DNA of 64,000 nucleotides from an uncultured Peptococcaceae bacterium (GTDB lineage Bacteria > Bacillota > Dehalobacteriia > UBA4068 > UBA4997). The position numbers were made by a program, and so were the translations under genes. Below, in pieces: positions 5,767 to 37,735 of this stretch (position 1 is the first letter of the stretch; every line of letters begins with the position of its first letter). The notes beneath the pieces were generated by a model. It ran no database searches. It saw only the letters and a program-made list of their open reading frames with translations, and was not told the origin of the DNA. The DNA is taken from NCBI GenBank assembly GCA_947647555.1, contig CANSKT010000002.1:12967-76966 (forward strand), given 5' to 3'.

Positions 5767-5774
5767 TTATAATT

Positions 5775-5819
5775 ATACTCAATCTTTGAGTATTTGTCAA
5801 TACTCAATTTATGAGTATT
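5775..5819 (+). promoter_or_regulatory. two palindromic operator-like sites inside a sigma-A-like promoter upstream of the XRE regulator
   Basis: Perfect palindrome ATACTCAA-TCT-TTGAGTAT (5775-5793). Second palindrome AATACTCA-ATTT-ATGAGTATT (5799-5819). TTGTCA (5794-5799), a 16-nt spacer and TATTAT form a promoter-like element. Confidence 0.5.
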
Positions 5820-5853: not shown

Positions 5854-6072
5854 GTGGATTACCGTACACGTATTCGTGACATCAGAGAAGACCGTGATTA
5901 TACCCAGGCGCAAATCGGCCAGATTTTGCATAAATCGCAGCAGGGCTATAACCACATTGAAGCCGGCCGCGCCGAATTAAAAATTGACGATTTAATTATC
6001 CTCTGCCAGTTTTATAACCTTTCCGCCGATTATGTAATCGGGCTGATTGATACGCCAACAGCCCTAAAATAA
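5854..6072 (+). CDS. XRE-family helix-turn-helix transcriptional regulator
   Basis: HTH_3 pattern (TQAQIGQILHKSQQGYNHIEAG). GTG start with a GGAGGA RBS 8 nt upstream. Confidence 0.8.
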   Translation: MDYRTRIRDIREDRDYTQAQIGQILHKSQQGYNHIEAGRAELKIDDLIILCQFYNLSADYVIGLIDTPTALK

Positions 6073-31704: not shown

Positions 31705-32886
31705 TTAGATACGCGCTACGCCGGAAGCCTTGGCCGCATCAGCCACAGCTTTGGCAATAACCGCCGCCACGTTCTTATCCAGCGCGCTGGGAATAATGTT
31801 CTCATTGTTCAGTTCAGCGTCCGGAATATAACCAGCCAGCGCCTTAGCCGCCGCCAGCTTCATTTCTTCATTAATATCAGAAGCGCGTACCGCCAGTGCG
31901 CCCTTGAAAAGGCCCGGGAATACCAGTACATTATTAATCTGATTGGGGAAATCAGAACGACCTGTACCGATTACCGCAGCACCGCCTGCTTTGGCCTCGT
32001 CGGGGAAAATTTCCGGTGTGGGATTAGCCATAGCAAAGATAATTGCGTCTTTAGCCATAGTTTTCACCATATCGGTGGTCAACAGACCGGGCTTGGATAC
32101 ACCAACGAAAACGTCAGAATCTTTAACTGCTTCAGCCAGACCACCGGTGCGTCCCTCATGGTTGGTCTGCGCCGCCAAATCCTTGTGGTTATCATTCAAC
32201 ATGGTAGCCGGAACATCTTTGTTGATAATGCCCTCCATGTCCACCAAGAACATATCTTTAACGCCCATTGCCAGAATAATCCGGGCAATGGCGGAACCAG
32301 CCGCACCACAACCGTTAATAACAATTTTCAAATCTTCCATCTTCTTGCCCACAACCTTGGCGGCATTGATGATGGCGCTTAAAACGCAAACGGCAGTGCC
32401 ATGCTGGTCATCATGGAAAATCGGAATATCTGTTTCTTCTTTCAGGCGCTGCTCAATATAGAAGCAACGGGGAGCCGCGATATCCTCAAGATTTACGCCG
32501 CCGAAAACCGGAGCAATATTTTTAACGATTTTGATAATTTCTTCATCGTCCTGGGTGTCAATACAAATCGGAAAAGCGTCTACATCAGCAAATTCCTTAA
32601 ACAGGATACTCTTACCCTCCATAACCGGAATTGCCGCCTTGGCGCCAATATTGCCCAAGCCCAAAACCGCGCTGCCGTCAGAAACCACAGCCACCAAATT
32701 GCCCTTGGCGGTGTATTTGTAAACATCATCTGCGTTATCGCGGATTTTGCGGCAAGGCTCCGCTACACCAGGAGTATAAGCAGTGCTTAAATCATCTCTG
32801 GTCTTAACCTCCACCTTGCTGACGACCTCGATTTTGCCCTGATGCTTTTCATGCATTTCCAGAGCCAGTTGGTTATAATCTGCCAT
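31705..32886 (-). CDS. NAD(P)-dependent malic enzyme (short form)
   Basis: Malic-enzyme N-terminal and NAD-binding motifs (YTPGVAEPC, VINGCGAAG). Confidence 0.85.
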   Translation of the reverse strand: MADYNQLALEMHEKHQGKIEVVSKVEVKTRDDLSTAYTPGVAEPCRKIRDNADDVYKYTAKGNLVAVVSDGSAVLGLGNIGAKAAIPVMEGKSILFKEFADVDAFPICIDTQDDEEIIKIVKNIAPVFGGVNLEDIAAPRCFYIEQRLKEETDIPIFHDDQHGTAVCVLSAIINAAKVVGKKMEDLKIVINGCGAAGSAIARIILAMGVKDMFLVDMEGIINKDVPATMLNDNHKDLAAQTNHEGRTGGLAEAVKDSDVFVGVSKPGLLTTDMVKTMAKDAIIFAMANPTPEIFPDEAKAGGAAVIGTGRSDFPNQINNVLVFPGLFKGALAVRASDINEEMKLAAAKALAGYIPDAELNNENIIPSALDKNVAAVIAKAVADAAKASGVARI

Positions 32887-33102
32887 TTTACATCTTCCTC
32901 TCTTTCATTTGCAGTTTTGCTGCAATTTTTTCAGGCAGAAGCGCCGGGCCGGTAAAAAAGCCTTTTACTTCTTCTCTACTTATATAATAAACTATTTACG
33001 CAACAATTACAACTTAAATTTTGCAAAATAGCAAGATTTTTTCTATTAACCAACAATTAAAATTACTAAACCTGCATAACTATGGCCGCTATGTTAATTA
33101 CA

Positions 33103-33867
33103 TTAAGTATTCTTTCTAAAATCCTTAACAAGGCAAAAAGAAGTTACACAAAATAAAATAATACATAAAATTTGAGATGTTGACATAAATGCTATTCCAC
33201 TACGTATTTCATCATACCTAAAAAATTCCAGGCAAAATCTACAAATGGAATATATTAATAAATACAGATAAAGACCACTATTATACCGTAATTTTTTACT
33301 GAATATCAAAAGAACAATGCCAAGCATAAGTTCAATAAACGCTTCAACTAATTGGACAGGAAATAATTCTACATTAACTGGTGCAAACTGTGAGTCAGTA
33401 TATGTAATAGACAACCAGCCTTCATATGGAATACCGTAACAGCAGCCAACCAAAAAACAACCAATTCGTCCGAACGCATGCCCAAAAGGTAAACAAGCAA
33501 TACAGGCCTGAATGTAAGGTTGCACGGAAATACCAAGATATTTATTGCAGATGTACAATGCTATAAGCAGACCAACAATTCCTCCCAGAAACACAAAGCC
33601 ACCATTCATTAATGAGTTCATATAAGACCAATCATTTAGTTTAGTAAAAATAATATATTTGTATGAAGTAATTAAATAAAGTATTTTAGCACAAATAATG
33701 CTTAAAAGTGCAGAAAAAGCACATATAATAATAAAATCATTTGCAACAAGCCCAAATCTTTTAATTTGTAAATACGAAATCGGAATATTTACCAAAATAC
33801 CGATAACAATCATCAACCCATAATAAGTAATAAAATGGGATAAAAACCAAAAACCAATTTGCTCCAT
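33103..33867 (-). CDS. lgt: prolipoprotein diacylglyceryl transferase-like protein (Lgt family, divergent GRIGCF..GCCYG variant) in an AT-rich islet
   Basis: Seven-TM architecture. The Lgt signature is present in variant form (HAFGRIGCFLVGCCYG instead of GRIGNFxNxE) with a conserved P.QL.E helix (FPVQLVEAFIELMLG). Its GC content is far below that of the flanking genes. Confidence 0.6.
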   Translation of the reverse strand: MEQIGFWFLSHFITYYGLMIVIGILVNIPISYLQIKRFGLVANDFIIICAFSALLSIICAKILYLITSYKYIIFTKLNDWSYMNSLMNGGFVFLGGIVGLLIALYICNKYLGISVQPYIQACIACLPFGHAFGRIGCFLVGCCYGIPYEGWLSITYTDSQFAPVNVELFPVQLVEAFIELMLGIVLLIFSKKLRYNSGLYLYLLIYSICRFCLEFFRYDEIRSGIAFMSTSQILCIILFCVTSFCLVKDFRKNT

Positions 33868-33963
33868 AAAATACACCTCAAAAAAACGATAGCCGCCCCT
33901 TTTTACATGATAGGAGCGGCGTACCATAATTTTATCCTTTGAACATAAACCGATTGTATGTTT

Positions 33964-34215
33964 TCATTGTGCCATAACAGCCAGGCCGCCAACGCACGCA
34001 ACACAAGCAATATAGAAAAGCAGGCACAGAATAGTTCCGATTATGGAACAAACCAATCCGGCCATAGCAATTCCATTAGGATTATTTTTTCTTGCAATAG
34101 CCCCAAGAATGATACCAATAATACCAATAATTGCACCCAGCCAGCCAATTGTTCCAGCCGTAAAGACGCCAAGAATAATCGACAAAATTCCCAAAACTAA
34201 TGAAGCAATTCCCAT
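33964..34215 (-). CDS. DUF4190-like small membrane protein
   Basis: 83 aa with two Gly/Ile-rich TM helices. AGGAGG RBS 8 nt upstream. Confidence 0.6.
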   Translation of the reverse strand: MGIASLVLGILSIILGVFTAGTIGWLGAIIGIIGIILGAIARKNNPNGIAMAGLVCSIIGTILCLLFYIACVACVGGLAVMAQ

Positions 34216-34485
34216 ATAAAATAACCTCCTAAAAATTTTTGTATCTCAGCAGCCGGAACACCAAAGGAGCGTTTTCTAGTGAAGGAGTTGGAATTCGCCC
34301 CTTGGTATTGGCCGCCAAGACAACAAAAAATACGCGCGCAGGCACAATTCACCCACACACGCATAGAAAACCCTTTTCAGGAGGGATTATACTTCTAAAG
34401 TGCAGCACCATACAACCGCTTGCAGTTTGCAAAAAAACGGTTAAAAAAACCTCTTGTAAAAAAGATACAGTTATACTATAATAAT

Positions 34486-34600
34486 AGTTGGTAGTGGCAC
34501 TTGCACAAAAAAGCAGTTGTGTATGGCTGGGCATGTCAGCCTGCATAGGGGGCGCTGAGGTATTTGCGGTACCTCAGCCCCTGCCGCTACTTTTTTTGTT
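34486..34600 (+). ncRNA. candidate small RNA (about 110 nt) with its own promoter and terminator
   Basis: TTGTAA, 17-nt spacer and TATAAT (about 34449-34478). A GGCTG...CAGCC hairpin and a long GGGGCGCTGAGGTA...TACCTCAGCCCC hairpin followed by TTTTTTT at about 34590-34600. No plausible ORF. Confidence 0.25.
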
Positions 34601-34747
34601 GCCCCGGTTACTACAAAAACAACGGGATACACCTTTATTATAATGCTAATAAATACATTTATCAAGATGTTTTTATAAGAAATTTAAATTTTTTTTCTCG
34701 CCGCCAGCTTGATTAAAATGGCAGGCAAAGCAAAAGGCAGATTTACA

Positions 34748-34776
34748 TTGACAAAATCTGCCTTTGAGAGTAAAAT
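34748..34776 (+). promoter_or_regulatory. sigma-A-type promoter for small ORF a
   Basis: TTGACA, 17-nt spacer and TAAAAT. Confidence 0.45.
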
Positions 34777-34843
34777 ATAAACAGGCACCACATAAGTTGG
34801 TAGGCGGTTAGCTGTTGACCCTCTTGCAAAGGAGGTGAGGCCT

Positions 34844-34930
34844 ATGCGAATAAGCTTTGATTTATGGTGTTTCCACATCATCATAAACATAAAGTTAAAA
34901 AAGCGTAGAAAAACCCGCCACTCGGCATAG
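34844..34930 (+). CDS. 28-aa peptide MRISFDLWCFHIIINIKLKKRRKTRHSA (type-I-toxin-like: hydrophobic N-terminus, poly-basic C-terminus)
   Basis: Strong RBS AAAGGAGGTGAGG 4 nt before the ATG and an upstream consensus promoter. A convergent perfect-consensus promoter lies 70 nt downstream on the opposite strand. Confidence 0.35.
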   Translation: MRISFDLWCFHIIINIKLKKRRKTRHSA

Positions 34931-34999
34931 TGACAGGTTTTAAGATTTAATAATTTGTTACAAAGGCTGGCCGCTTATCAGTGGTGCCTATCTATTAAT

Positions 35000-35028
35000 A
35001 TTATAGTGCAGTTTAGCCAATTTGTCAA
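35000..35028 (-). promoter_or_regulatory. perfect consensus sigma-A promoter on the minus strand (antisense to small ORF a)
   Basis: Minus-strand sequence reads TTGACA-aattggctaaactgcac-TATAAT with a 17-nt spacer. Confidence 0.5.
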
Positions 35029-35227
35029 CTATTAAAGCAACAAGCCAACATATTTTTTGTGCAGGCTTGTTTTTTTGTACGCTGTATGTTAGAATAAACC
35101 ATGAAAAGAGAATATTCGCTCAATATGCGGCTGCTCCCTCCAGGAACCACGACACGCAAGTGAAGTGCAGAGAGGGTGACGTATCCCCTCTCTCGCTTAC
35201 ATAGGAGAATAAAGGGGAGGTGTTGCA

Positions 35228-35323
35228 ATGATTTGGATAAACATTGCTGCCCTGATTATGCAGGCTATTCAGCTTGGCATACAGATAGCAGAGTTATTGA
35301 AGAAAAACAGCACACAAAAATAG
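35228..35323 (+). CDS. 31-aa peptide MIWINIAALIMQAIQLGIQIAELLKKNSTQK (type-I-toxin-like small hydrophobic peptide)
   Basis: RBS AAAGGGGAGG 7 nt before the ATG. The 5' UTR contains a GAGAGGG...CCCTCTC hairpin. A bidirectional terminator lies immediately 3', and a convergent perfect-consensus promoter lies 90 nt downstream. Confidence 0.4.
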   Translation: MIWINIAALIMQAIQLGIQIAELLKKNSTQK

Positions 35324-35356
35324 CCGCCTCTCGACCAAAGACCGCGGCTATTTTTT
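35322..35356. terminator. bidirectional rho-independent terminator
   Basis: AGCCGC...GCGGCT hairpin flanked by T/A runs on both strands. Confidence 0.55.
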
Positions 35357-35414
35357 AGCTCAAATCTGAGGAAACAATCGCTGCGAGCGATTACCTCTTT
35401 TCATTTCTATATAA

Positions 35415-35443
35415 ATTATAGTTCAGTTTAGCCAATTTGTCAA
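35415..35443 (-). promoter_or_regulatory. perfect consensus sigma-A promoter on the minus strand (antisense to small ORF b)
   Basis: Minus-strand sequence reads TTGACA-aattggctaaactgaac-TATAAT with a 17-nt spacer. About 30 bp are near-identical to the promoter at 35000-35028. Confidence 0.5.
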
Positions 35444-35485
35444 TAAATTTTGGAATTTCATTTGATTAAAGAGAGGAAAAATAAT

Positions 35486-37171
35486 ATGAAAATAGCCCTT
35501 GCCCAGATAAAAGTTCGCGCCGGACGGCCGGACATAAATTTTCAAAACATGCTGGATTTCTGCCGTCAGGCCGCCAAACAGCAGGCGGATTTAATCGTCT
35601 TTCCCGAGCTGGCCATGAGCGGCAGTTTTTTGGGTCAGGCCTGGGCCAGTCCCGGCTTGCTGGCTGAAATTCAGAAATTTAACCAGAAGTTGATTGCCGC
35701 CAGCAGTCAGCTGCATGAAGCCGTAATTGTATTCGGCAGTATCGGCATGGTTAAAACCCCGGACGGCAACAGTTCACCCACCAGCGCTATTTACGTGGCG
35801 CAAAACGGCGCGCAGCTTTCCTCACCGGCCGGCAGTTTCCGCGCCAAGGTAAATGGTCAGACGCTGGATTTTGCCCTGCTGACCGAGCAGCAAAGCCAGC
35901 CGGCCGCGCCTATTGTACTGAAGCTGGCCACCTCCTGTTTTGTGCAGGAAAAAACGCCGCAGTTTTACCAAAGCTTTGCCGCTTATGCCAAAACCTATGG
36001 CAAAACGCTGGTTTATGTTAACCACGTCGGCGTGCAGGACGCCGGCAAACCGGTCTATGTTTATGACGGCGCCAGCGCTGTTTTCAGCCCGGACGGCGAA
36101 CTGCTGGCTGCCGCGCCCCAGTTTGCGGAACATCTGCTGCTTTTCGATACGGAGCAGACACCAAAGCCGCTGGAACTGCCCAAAACCGACAGCACCGCCG
36201 CGCTTTATGACGGTCTGGTACATGCTATCCGCGAGTATTCGGCCAATTTGGGTATAAACCGGGCAGTAATCGGCCTATCCGGCGGTATCGACTCCTGCTT
36301 AAACGCCTGCCTGCTGACAGCCGCTTTGGGCAAGGAAAATGTTTTGGGTATCAATCTGCCCTCCCGTTATAATTCCGACGCCACCCGGGAATGTGCGGAA
36401 AAGCTGGCCGCCAATTTGGATATTCGTTATGAGGTGCTGCCCATTCAGGATATGGTAGACCAGCGCGCCGAACTGCTGGCCCAGCTTAACCTGCCCCTCT
36501 CCGCGGAAATGCTGGAAAATGTGCAGTCCCGGGAACGCGGCGCTGGCTTTTTGGCTGCGGCCGCGGCTGCTTTCGGCGGCGCGGTAATCTGTAATGGCAA
36601 CAAAAGCGAGTTTACAATCGGCTACGCTACCATGTACGGCGACGCTATCGGTTATTTTGCACCTCTGGGCGACCTCTGGAAATGCCAGATTTATGAAATT
36701 GCCCGGTATATTTATGAAACTTCTGGTCTGCTGCCGCTGGCGGCGTTGGAACTCCAGCCCAGCGCTGAACTTTCTGATGCGCAGGATATTGAAAAAGGCC
36801 TGGGCGACCCTCTTTGCTATGCTTACCATGATTATCTGTTCCGCAGTTGGGTGGAATGGGGTCAGGATATCACAGACAGTCTGACCTTTTATGAGCAGGG
36901 CAAGCTGGCCGAGGTTACCGGCTGCGGCACCGAGCAACTGCGCCAGCTTTTCCCGGACACTGAAAGTTTTCTGGCCGATTTGGAGCGTTGGTGGCAGTTA
37001 TATCGGGGGCTGGCTGTGGCCAAGCGTTTACAGGCGCCGCCGGTTCTTTCCCTCTCGCGCCGGGCGTTTGGCGCCGACCTGCCGGAAAGTCAGACCGGCT
37101 GCCATCTGGACGACGAATATTTAACCCTAAAAGCCAAAGTGCTGGCCAAAGCCGACCAGCTGGCATTTTAA
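35486..37171 (+). CDS. nadE: glutamine-dependent NAD+ synthetase (N-terminal nitrilase/CN-hydrolase domain + NAD synthetase domain)
   Basis: CN-hydrolase region (LIVFPELAMSG) and the NAD-synthetase P-loop (GLSGGIDS). GAGAGGA RBS. Confidence 0.9.
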   Translation: MKIALAQIKVRAGRPDINFQNMLDFCRQAAKQQADLIVFPELAMSGSFLGQAWASPGLLAEIQKFNQKLIAASSQLHEAVIVFGSIGMVKTPDGNSSPTSAIYVAQNGAQLSSPAGSFRAKVNGQTLDFALLTEQQSQPAAPIVLKLATSCFVQEKTPQFYQSFAAYAKTYGKTLVYVNHVGVQDAGKPVYVYDGASAVFSPDGELLAAAPQFAEHLLLFDTEQTPKPLELPKTDSTAALYDGLVHAIREYSANLGINRAVIGLSGGIDSCLNACLLTAALGKENVLGINLPSRYNSDATRECAEKLAANLDIRYEVLPIQDMVDQRAELLAQLNLPLSAEMLENVQSRERGAGFLAAAAAAFGGAVICNGNKSEFTIGYATMYGDAIGYFAPLGDLWKCQIYEIARYIYETSGLLPLAALELQPSAELSDAQDIEKGLGDPLCYAYHDYLFRSWVEWGQDITDSLTFYEQGKLAEVTGCGTEQLRQLFPDTESFLADLERWWQLYRGLAVAKRLQAPPVLSLSRRAFGADLPESQTGCHLDDEYLTLKAKVLAKADQLAF

Positions 37172-37255: not shown

Positions 37256-37290
37256 TTGACAATAAAATAATAGCATGCTATAATAATCAA
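37256..37290 (+). promoter_or_regulatory. consensus promoter with an embedded palindromic operator upstream of marR
   Basis: TTGACA, 17-nt spacer and TATAAT. The palindrome ATAGCATGCTAT overlaps the spacer and the -10 element. Confidence 0.55.
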
Positions 37291-37309: not shown

Positions 37310-37735
37310 ATGGACTGGCAAAACAACTGCGGCGCTATGCTGAAGCAGCTGCATGATGAAATTGAAAGACGAGCCAACAATTCCTTGCGCTCTCAAAATC
37401 TGACATTGGCGCAAATGCACGTTCTGTTGCTGCTGCATGACGCTCCCAACCATCAGCTGCCCCTGAAAGATTTGGAGGCGCTAATGCACGTGGCGCAATC
37501 CACCACGGCCGGCATTGTCAGCCGTCTGCAAAAAAAGGAGTTGGTACAGGCGCTTGATGACGCGGCCGACCAGCGTATTAAAATTGTGCAGCTGACAGAA
37601 AGCGGTTTAAACTGCTGGCAAACCGCCAACAAACATATTACGGAAACTGAAGCCGCTCTTTTATCCGGTCTGACGGAAACTGAACAGGCAATTCTTATAA
37701 CCCTGCTCAAAAAGCTGCGCGATAATGTTTGTTAG
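37310..37735 (+). CDS. MarR-family transcriptional regulator
   Basis: Winged-HTH MarR pattern (LTLAQMHVLLLL...STTAGIVSRLQKKELV). Confidence 0.85.
   Translation: MDWQNNCGAMLKQLHDEIERRANNSLRSQNLTLAQMHVLLLLHDAPNHQLPLKDLEALMHVAQSTTAGIVSRLQKKELVQALDDAADQRIKIVQLTESGLNCWQTANKHITETEAALLSGLTETEQAILITLLKKLRDNVC

Follow-up and report, generated by a model that had tools for sequence, protein, structure and literature searches.

Two convergent cassettes upstream of nadE

The question raised by this locus is what occupies a gap of ~1.27 kb, without any gene of an annotated type, between a DUF4190 gene (33964-34215, minus strand) and nadE, coding for a glutamine-dependent NAD synthase (35486-37171, plus strand), in a stretch of 64,000 nucleotides (nt; hereafter the window) from an uncultured Peptococcaceae bacterium (GenBank assembly GCA_947647555.1, contig CANSKT010000002.1, positions 12,967-76,966). 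The initial annotation had suggested a duplicated toxin/antisense RNA pair. The gap was found to house two convergent cassettes, module A (34748-35028) and module B (35067-35443), the former mirroring the layout of the latter (Table 1). Both are probably type I toxin-antitoxin-like modules with a layout typical of Gram-positive bacteria. Module B very probably represents a new type I toxin-antitoxin family, and module A is a probable, albeit more doubtful, second one.

The two plus-strand mini-open reading frames (ORFs) of 28 and 31 amino acids (aa) with strong Shine-Dalgarno (SD) sequences were confirmed, as were the minus-strand promoters 3' of them reading exactly TTGACA-N17-TATAAT: both scored 12/12 in the promoter scan and their -10 boxes lie 70 nt (module A) and 92 nt (module B) past the ORF stop codons. 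Perfect sites of this kind occur four times in the 64-kb window against 0.02 expected, and two of the four are these antisense promoters. The near-identical block reported at both promoters measures 38 nt with 89% identity (34991-35028 and 35406-35443), its 20-nt exact core being unique to these two places within the window. The AT-rich islet described around the ORFs was also recovered (~32850-35500; GC 0.26-0.43 versus 0.50-0.58 in the flanks), while the plus-strand promoters of both ORFs and the bidirectional terminator of module A had been overlooked. The suggested duplication did not hold: judged by their sequences, the modules are not duplicates, since they have only the antisense promoter block in common, their peptides and RNA bodies being different, and antisense RNA A went undetected by a covariance model built on its module B counterpart. 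No prophage genes were found in the immediate neighbourhood of the modules.

The peptide of module B and its family

The ORF2 product (peptide 2) has homologues in 16 modules or more, which come from gut metagenomes and from three related metagenome-assembled genomes (MAGs) of uncultured Firmicutes, with up to 7 copies per genome. The pattern scan of 185,579 species genomes returned 10 loci, all in the three MAGs (7 in "Uncultured Firmicutes" MGBC125362, 2 in a Peptococcaceae MAG and 1 in a Bacillota MAG), and a metagenome scan gave 5 loci, near-duplicates only. An exhaustive HMMER scan of 1.84 billion representative proteins produced only two relatives: P0001, 71% identical and syntenic 5' of nadE, and P0002, with a 58% identical core, encoded between ilvC and an aminotransferase gene. 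The protein homologue search with a 47-aa form of the peptide yielded 4 clusters only, and no relatives were present among the viral contigs scanned. The exact 31-aa peptide appears as a called gene on metagenome contigs from many samples in one constant neighbourhood (malic enzyme, lgt, DUF4190, module, nadE, marR, MATE). Among the module B copies as a whole the gene neighbours vary (nadE, ilvC/aminotransferase, spoVA), and neighbours such as spoVA and coat F point to spore-forming hosts. The antisense covariance model additionally revealed two further modules with new peptide variants, MFFINIATLILFAIQVGVQVVDFILKWCRKK and MFFISIATLLLFTIQVGVQVAEFILKWRKQK.

All members of the family have five elements in common. 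The toxin promoter has a TTGnnn hexamer 17 nt 5' of a TAnAAT box, most copies also showing a TG in front of the box, and the leader measures ~125 nt. The SD, of type GGGGAGG, GGGGG or GAGGG, is spaced 7 nt from the ATG. The fourth and fifth elements are the bidirectional terminator, AAAAATAGCCGC...GCGGCTATTTTT, and a facing promoter of the TTGACA-17-TATAAT type. Two subfamilies were distinguished by their peptide tails and leaders. In subfamily 1, the promoter hexamer beginning with TTG could be read by eye 17 nt 5' of the TAnAAT box in 8/8 homologues.

The codon pattern indicates that peptide 2 is under purifying (coding) selection: among 13 distinct ORFs of the family, the variable columns were distributed over the three codon positions as 11/10/21 and the entropy as 10.7/6.8/21.0, codon differences were synonymous in 456 and non-synonymous in 590 cases (44% synonymous), and the other two frames were filled with stops. 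The hydrophobic character ascribed to both peptides by the initial annotation was found in ORF2 but not in ORF1 (see below). Residues 6-24 of peptide 2 form a stretch competent for transmembrane (TM) insertion (Kyte-Doolittle [KD] window 1.71), with a polar stripe (N5, Q12, Q15, Q19, E22) falling entirely inside one 100-degree arc, and AlphaFold2 modelled one continuous helix over residues 3-30 (pLDDT 83.5); the peptide is thus predicted to be a single amphipathic TM helix. Its C-terminal Q-K-stop never varies, because it is encoded by the A run and the first stem bases of the terminator. Another, leaderless ORF of 20 aa starting at 35101 was set aside, as it is not conserved in the homologous loci L020, L021 and L024.

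Several copies of the family are in decay. Codon Q15 of the peptide is replaced by a stop in L030, the L022 peptide is truncated by two residues, and in L025 (4230-4700, minus strand) the SD and the ORF are deleted with the leader fused directly to the terminator, while the antisense RNA gene is intact (79 bits with the covariance model R1). Loss of the toxin with retention of the antitoxin in decayed copies is the pattern predicted by a toxin-antitoxin pair.

RNA structure of module B

The hairpin reported in the 5' untranslated region of module B and its bidirectional terminator were both confirmed. The terminator stem is conserved in the family, with a G-C to A-U swap in subfamily 2. In the terminator loop of the toxin mRNA (35328-35343 in the window, and its homologues) the 5' half is always CU-rich but variable in sequence, and the 3' half is conserved (CCAAAGA or CAAAAG), so that the loop of the antisense RNA keeps CUUUGG or CUUUUG. 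This conserved loop sequence is compatible with a YUNR U-turn.

Sequestration of the SD in cis was seen in the consensus folds of both subfamilies. In subfamily 1 (8 homologues) the leader segment GCGGC..CCCUC pairs with GAGGG.GUUGC, i.e., with the SD up to the start codon, and the minimum free energy (MFE) fold of the window mRNA contains the corresponding helix CUCCCU:GGGGAG. Both strands of this helix are changed in L012 (CCCCCU/AGGGGG versus CUCCCU/GGGGAG in the window). In subfamily 2, the proximal segment CCCUCUCC pairs with the SD and the start codon, and the leader CCCUCA with UGAGGG.

The antisense RNAs of 14 homologues align to one design, in which an unpaired 5' tail is followed by a hairpin (three of its pairs covarying), a conserved and single-stranded CCCUC-type segment, a UUAGCU linker and the terminator. 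In this alignment 96.8% of the cells were paired, compared to 36-54% in slid controls, and the covariation score was 0.263 versus 0.143 for shuffles (reached in 0/500), the counts representing few independent events. The covariance model R1 scored the window antisense RNA B at 92.7 bits (35308-35402) and found copies absent from its alignment at 53-86 bits, with no orphan antisense copies either in the window or in the 14 fetched loci. The overlap with the toxin mRNA amounts to ~50 nt and consists of the terminator and the last codons of the ORF. The convergent arrangement claimed by the initial annotation, an antisense RNA overlapping the 3' end of a small-peptide mRNA, is supported in both modules, and strongly so by comparative data in module B.

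Module A and its peptide

Module A was found solely at this locus, in three species, and its conservation is weak. The predicted mRNA starts with the motif AGGCACCAC (34783-34791), and its SD is hidden in a hairpin (CCUCUU/AGGAGG, 34820-34835; CCTCTT/AGGAGG in the DNA); in the MFE fold the 5' elements AGGC:GCCU and CAC:GUG pair as well, closing on the start region. The terminator stem is preserved in diverged strain variants. The peptides encoded in the window and in L022 are cationic (net charge +7 and +4, respectively) and have a strong beta-amphipathic character, with moments at 170 degrees of 0.53 and 0.62.

A comparison of ORF1 with its L022 homologue (MRISFDLWCFHIIINIKLKKRRKTRHSA versus (MP)IKLTFHIGNFKISIEIKFR-HSNNRH) showed that the frame is held across a 3-nt indel. 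The differences fall on the codon positions as 9/7/14, the other two frames hold stops, and the replacements are conservative in 10 of 17 cases. The L022 module is homologous over its full length but inverted relative to the window, and carries insertions of 28 nt in the leader and 80 nt in the antisense RNA. It is flanked by 77-nt direct repeats with 88% identity (1807-1883 and 2239-2315) that include a promoter copy, which points to a rearrangement by duplication and recombination at a hot spot.

An insertion element of ~85 nt (GCCCCATTCGCT...GGGATTAGTTCTCACTAAGCTCT...CTTGGCAATCGCTAAGTGTTCAC) was noticed in L012 (250-345, minus strand), L022 (1912-2005, plus strand), L038 (~968-1052) and L039 (plus strand). 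In the two species represented by L012 and L022 it separates the 5' motif of antisense RNA A from the promoter, and in L038/L039 it lies within the 3' end of a toxin ORF, giving a 79-aa product. The element is absent from the window and had no Rfam match.

Same-sense leader copy and possible pairing in trans

The flanking repeats of each module are inverted, so that the beginning of each antisense RNA repeats that of its own toxin mRNA. Subfamily 1 transcripts have the common start GAAAAGAG and those of subfamily 2 ACAAAGAG/C, and the likeness continues through the hairpin to the anti-SD segment, with 15 identical nt in L012 (GCGGCTGCCCCCTCA) and ~36/44 in L025. In local alignments of the leader with the antisense 5' domain, 10 of the 14 loci scored higher than all 1000 shuffles, and the similarity was subfamily-specific; the first 7-8 nt match by the anchoring of the sequences, and only the excess beyond them counts. 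For module A the same-sense match was reached by 1/1000 shuffles. The promoters themselves are dissimilar, which confines the copy to the transcribed sequence. On these alignments the same-sense homology between leader and antitoxin is real and statistically solid. Two other ideas were set aside: that the inverted repeats are ends of a miniature mobile element, as the promoters are outside the repeats and yet conserved with the modules, and that read-through transcripts form a closing 5'-3' helix, as the terminators look strong.

The RNA-RNA duplex prediction proposed as a check by the initial annotation gave energies better than those of shuffles for module A but not for the whole mRNA of module B. 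The 5' tail of antisense RNA A (AUAGGC..CAC(U/C)) is complementary to GGUG..GCCUAU(G) in the start region of its mRNA, with a pairing energy of -15.5 (shuffles -7.3 +/- 2.3, reached in 1/500), and -22.5 was obtained with the entire 5' domain (shuffles -12.6 +/- 2.9, 0/300). The corresponding sequences of L022, GGCUCUGUG in the start region and CACAUAGCC in the antisense RNA, are not those of the window and still match each other by inspection, although the energy was not significant because of the length of that antisense RNA. In subfamily 1 of module B, the interrupted helix made by the cis leader with the SD region could equally be formed by the antisense CU segment, and pairing restricted to the start region was modestly better than in shuffles in 7/9 loci (e.g., 19/300 in the window, 10/300 in L012, 6/300 in L021 and 0/300 in L023; 0-28/300 in six loci outside the window).

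A number of results speak against functional pairing in trans. The second contact of module A, 9 bp of CCUUUGUAA:UUGCAAAGG, is lost in L001-type strains. Duplexes of the whole module B mRNA with the antisense 5' domain (RNAduplex) were no better than shuffles, for which reason no extended trans pairing is claimed for this module. The start-region values of L028 and L020 were reached by 76/300 and 147/300 shuffles, respectively, and subfamily 2 did no better than shuffles in 4/5 loci. Comparison of cognate with non-cognate duplex energies in the module B family gave no specificity, and a target search with the 5' tails GAAAAGAG and ACAAAGAG no consistent site.

Proposed mechanism

The mechanism adopted here is the minimal one, based on the ~50-nt 3' overlap. 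A moderately strong plus-strand promoter would produce a short mRNA for the 28-aa or 31-aa peptide. In the new mRNA the SD would be base-paired to an upstream pyrimidine-rich leader segment, and the primary transcript is consequently predicted to be poorly translated. The perfect-consensus minus-strand promoter would drive an antisense RNA of ~90-95 nt, which ends at the same bidirectional terminator as the mRNA and is thus fully complementary to it over ~50 nt. Pairing may begin at the complementary terminator loops and lead to mRNA decay, a translation block or both, and the peptide of module B, when made, would damage the membrane. The translation block may use the antisense 5' domain, the same-sense copy of the mRNA leader, which in module A is complementary to the region from the SD to the start codon and in module B carries a CU-rich copy of the cis anti-SD.

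It is conceivable, if rather doubtful, that the antitoxin RNA acts in trans as a copy of the toxin mRNA's own leader, a "trans anti-SD mimic"; given the weak or negative trans-pairing tests of module B this is treated as a hypothesis. The antisense RNA opens with the same 8-45 nt as the toxin mRNA, comprising the 5' tail, the hairpin and the pyrimidine-rich anti-SD. In the mRNA the leader would silence translation in cis, and once it was removed by 5' processing or opened, the antisense RNA would supply the identical silencer in trans, tethered via the complementary terminator. It might do so either by direct pairing with the SD and start codon (module A and subfamily 1) or by occupying the GAGGG partner, which would leave the proximal anti-SD in place on the SD (subfamily 2). 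We know of no type I system for which such a logic has been described, with inverted repeats resulting in mimicry as opposed to the direct repeats of par resulting in complementarity.

Relation to known type I systems

Neither the peptides nor the RNAs belong to a known family by the profile tests applied. Searches of Pfam, NCBIfam (E<=1 or E<=10) and PADLOC gave no family match for the peptides, PHROGs returned only weak matches to families of unknown function (E 0.02 and 0.26), and the PDB profile search designed helical repeats only. In the whole window, Rfam detected nothing at the gathering threshold except one tRNA; at E<=10 the best match in the modules was OrzO-P (21.9 bits against a threshold of 60, E = 1.1), a similarity limited to the terminator. 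There was no similarity to TxpA, BsrG, BsrE, YonT, Hol-Tox-type toxins or any Rfam antitoxin. The family matched none of the loci named for comparison in the initial annotation, Fst, TxpA and BsrG, by sequence or profile.

In layout the modules conform to the Gram-positive type I families, in which the antisense RNA is encoded on the 3' side and overlaps the mRNA partially (PMC8594479, PMC7472228). A close resemblance in design exists to par (Fst, RNA I-RNA II) and the Fst/RNAII family, which likewise have convergent promoters, a common bidirectional intrinsic terminator, complementary stem-loops giving the overlap, an intramolecular structure hiding the SD in the toxin mRNA, and a toxin of ~30 aa whose helix is hydrophobic and whose C-terminus ends in a charged tail, also present in multiple chromosomal copies (PMC7472228). 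However, in par of pAD1 the repeats are direct (DRa/DRb), which makes the 5' ends of the two RNAs complementary (PMC7472228), while here they are inverted and the two 5' domains same-sense; the antisense RNA described here overlaps the last ORF codons as well. Sequence and profile similarity to par is lacking (Pfam, NCBIfam and Rfam all negative), and the PXXXG motif of Fst is missing, no member of the peptide 2 family containing any proline. Three findings place the modules outside the Fst family: the absence of PXXXG, the lack of a profile match and the orientation of the repeats, which are inverted instead of direct.

SprA1/SprA1AS of Staphylococcus aureus resembles the modules in the overlap of the RNA 3' ends, and in this system, as in Fst/RNAII, the functional pairing takes place outside the overlap (PMC8594479). 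Module A shows in silico a complementarity of the antisense 5' domain to the start region, while the peptides are unrelated to SprA1 and the equivalent pairing in module B is weakly supported. In the work of Sayed et al. from 2012, repression by SprA1AS was reportedly exerted by its 5' domain on the translation start region. To our knowledge, no same-sense leader copy has been reported for SprA1AS.

The systems BsrG/SR4 and TxpA/RatA of Bacillus subtilis have in common with the modules the 3'-side antisense RNA overlapping the ORF end, and an SD located in a stem, the stability of which determines whether translation occurs. SR4 has two effects, promoting decay and tightening the SD sequestration, and demonstrates that a 3'-overlapping antisense RNA can control SD accessibility (PMC4147584). 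In contrast to the ~120-nt overlap of bsrG/SR4 (PMC4147584), the overlap here is ~50 nt with a common terminator; the toxins are also dissimilar to BsrG and TxpA, and the modules are located in a chromosomal intergenic hot spot. A conceptual likeness exists to hok/Sok and AapA1/IsoA1, where the SD is hidden by a cis pairing over a long range and the full-length toxin mRNA is silent as a result, as predicted here. In these systems, which are Gram-negative, the 5' and 3' ends pair, the antisense RNA is located within the mRNA and processing is documented, the latter being a conjecture in the present case.

Alternative explanations

The type I reading has to be weighed against other explanations and against several weak points of its own. 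All transcript ends were derived from consensus motifs, and the family has a narrow range, comprising three MAG species and metagenome variants; the few independent events behind the covariation counts and the weak or negative trans-pairing results of module B belong here too. Further weak points concern ORF1. There is a fair chance, though less than an even one, that module A is related to the module B family but decaying or non-coding, with an accidental ORF1, so that only the RNAs, if anything, would be functional. ORF1 has no homologue outside this locus; it is only ~30% identical between species, the codon changes relative to L022 being 2 synonymous versus 17 non-synonymous; and its product is unlike a membrane toxin, with a charge of +7 and a best 19-aa KD window of 0.84, which is not TM-like. 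In the related species L012 antisense RNA A faces no intact ORF, and in strain L004 the segment 34716-34857 with the promoter and the ORF1 start is absent while antisense RNA A is kept. The leader moreover has GGCGGTTAGC in common with subfamily 2 leaders. Yet the frame, the length, the SD spacing and the alternating hydrophobic/polar pattern have been held between the window and L022 despite ~50% DNA divergence and the in-frame indel, with both alternative frames stopped and most replacements conservative, and the SD is strong and specifically sequestered, all of which argues for a coding ORF1.

That the peptides of both modules are ordinary small proteins, e.g., small membrane proteins, tuned by a cis-antisense RNA and neither toxins nor parts of addiction or stress modules, seems unlikely. 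The purifying selection on peptide 2 would fit, as would the synteny of the nadE-linked module B copy in related organisms, where a housekeeping small gene might be expected to stay. Against this are the up to 7 copies per genome in unrelated contexts, the repeated inactivation or deletion of the peptide gene with the antisense RNA kept, the predicted double lock on translation and the perfect consensus of the antisense promoter, which are hallmarks of type I toxins and not of housekeeping small proteins. It is still less probable that the minus-strand RNAs are mainly trans-acting C/U-rich small RNAs (sRNAs) targeting the SD of other mRNAs, with the adjacency to small ORFs being secondary. C-rich seed sRNAs such as RoxS/RsaE do target the SD sites of other mRNAs in Firmicutes, and the conserved single-stranded CCCUC-type motif pairs about equally with cognate and non-cognate start regions; but in all of the modules, of which there are over 16, the RNA lies opposite a peptide gene or what remains of one, across a common terminator, its 5' domain tracks the leader of its own subfamily, and orphan copies were found neither in the window nor in the 14 fetched loci. 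The least probable, to a degree that we hardly consider it, is a cis-regulatory leader or insulator for nadE. Module B does lie directly 5' of nadE, in synteny in the relatives, and the promoter scan found no sigma-70-like plus-strand promoter between its terminator and the nadE start codon (35360-35486), so that nadE may be transcribed either by read-through from the toxin promoter or from a weak promoter that escaped recognition. The same module, however, occurs beside unrelated genes, matches no riboswitch or leader family, and places a strong terminator before nadE.

Other features of the locus

Table 1. Features of modules A and B and of the neighbouring third cassette (window coordinates)
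Feature	Position	Strand	Basis or remark
Third cassette, promoter TTGTAA-17-TATAAT	34454-34482	+	
Third cassette, hairpin RNA, ~110 nt	34489-34600	+	very stable, z = -4.7; U7 tail
Third cassette, facing promoter TTGATA-17-TATAAT	34665..34637	-	
Promoter of module A peptide mRNA, TTGACA-17-TAAAAT	34748..34776	+	11/12 in scan; aligns with homologous promoter of L022
Predicted module A mRNA	34783..34947	+	ends inferred from -10 box and terminator
ORF1, candidate toxin A, 28 aa from ATG, MRISFDLWCFHIIINIKLKKRRKTRHSA	34845..34930 (34845-34930)	+	SD AGGAGGTG at 34830-34837
Bidirectional terminator-type hairpin, module A	34910..34941	.	13-pair stem, flanked by A run and T run
Predicted antisense RNA A, ~90 nt	34900..34993	-	between 12/12 promoter and terminator
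Perfect-consensus promoter, antisense RNA A	35000..35028	-	12/12; position order 35028..35000
Inter-module hairpin with A and T flanks	35034..35076	.	inverted-repeat search; overlaps -35 box of module B toxin promoter
Promoter of module B toxin mRNA, TTGTTT-17-TAGAAT, extended -10 type (TG at -15/-14)	35067..35095	+	by eye
Predicted toxin mRNA B, ~255 nt	35102..35358	+	MFE z-score -3.5
Leader anti-SD, mRNA B	35127-35141	+	
Conserved 5' untranslated region hairpin, mRNA B	35163-35198	+	
SD of ORF2, GGGGAGGTG	35214-35222	+	
ORF2, candidate toxin B, 31 aa, MIWINIAALIMQAIQLGIQIAELLKKNSTQK	35228..35323 (35228-35323)	+	homologues, coding selection
Bidirectional intrinsic terminator, module B	35316..35355 (35316-35355)	.	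perfect 12-nt arms; stop codon TAG inside stem
Predicted antisense RNA B, ~95 nt	35308..35405	-	MFE z-score -3.5
Antisense RNA B, 5' tail GAAAAGAG, then hairpin	hairpin at plus-strand 35376-35392	-	
Antisense RNA B, single-stranded UUUCCUC, then linker and terminator	plus-strand 35368-35374	-	
Perfect-consensus promoter, antisense RNA B	35415..35443	-	12/12; kept in L011, L012 and L022

A third convergent cassette (34454-34665) is located just 5' of module A. It is kept in L022 with changes mostly in the loops, and had neither a conserved ORF nor an Rfam match. The inter-module hairpin was seen by eye at the equivalent place in L012 and L022. On the minus strand at 33072-33098, right after the stop codon of the AT-rich lgt gene, 27 nt with codons for INIAAIVMQ were recognised as what is left of a subfamily 2 toxin gene, which suggests that an older module was disrupted on arrival of the low-GC lgt/DUF4190 segment. 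The locus is a hot spot, in which one pair of housekeeping genes encloses three convergent RNA cassettes, the remnant of a toxin gene, and inversions as well as insertions.

The remaining two perfect promoters of the window are unrelated to the modules. The one at 5772-5800 (minus strand) bears palindromic operator-like repeats TACTCAAAGATTGAGTA and diverges from an XRE-type helix-turn-helix gene (5854-6072); it was rejected as a further module, being an operator-bearing promoter beside that gene. The other, at 37256-37284 (plus strand), lies 5' of marR (37310-37735).

Implications

The results add a candidate type I toxin-antitoxin family, not described before, from gut Firmicutes that are uncultured and spore-forming. 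It consists of a 31-aa amphipathic-helix peptide and a ~95-nt antisense RNA, and possibly a second one with an unusual cationic beta-amphipathic peptide. These peptides and RNAs are absent from Pfam, NCBIfam, Rfam, PHROGs and PADLOC, and the gene callers mostly miss them. The same-sense similarity between leader and antitoxin suggests a testable variant of antisense control, which could serve as a template for portable RNA regulators.

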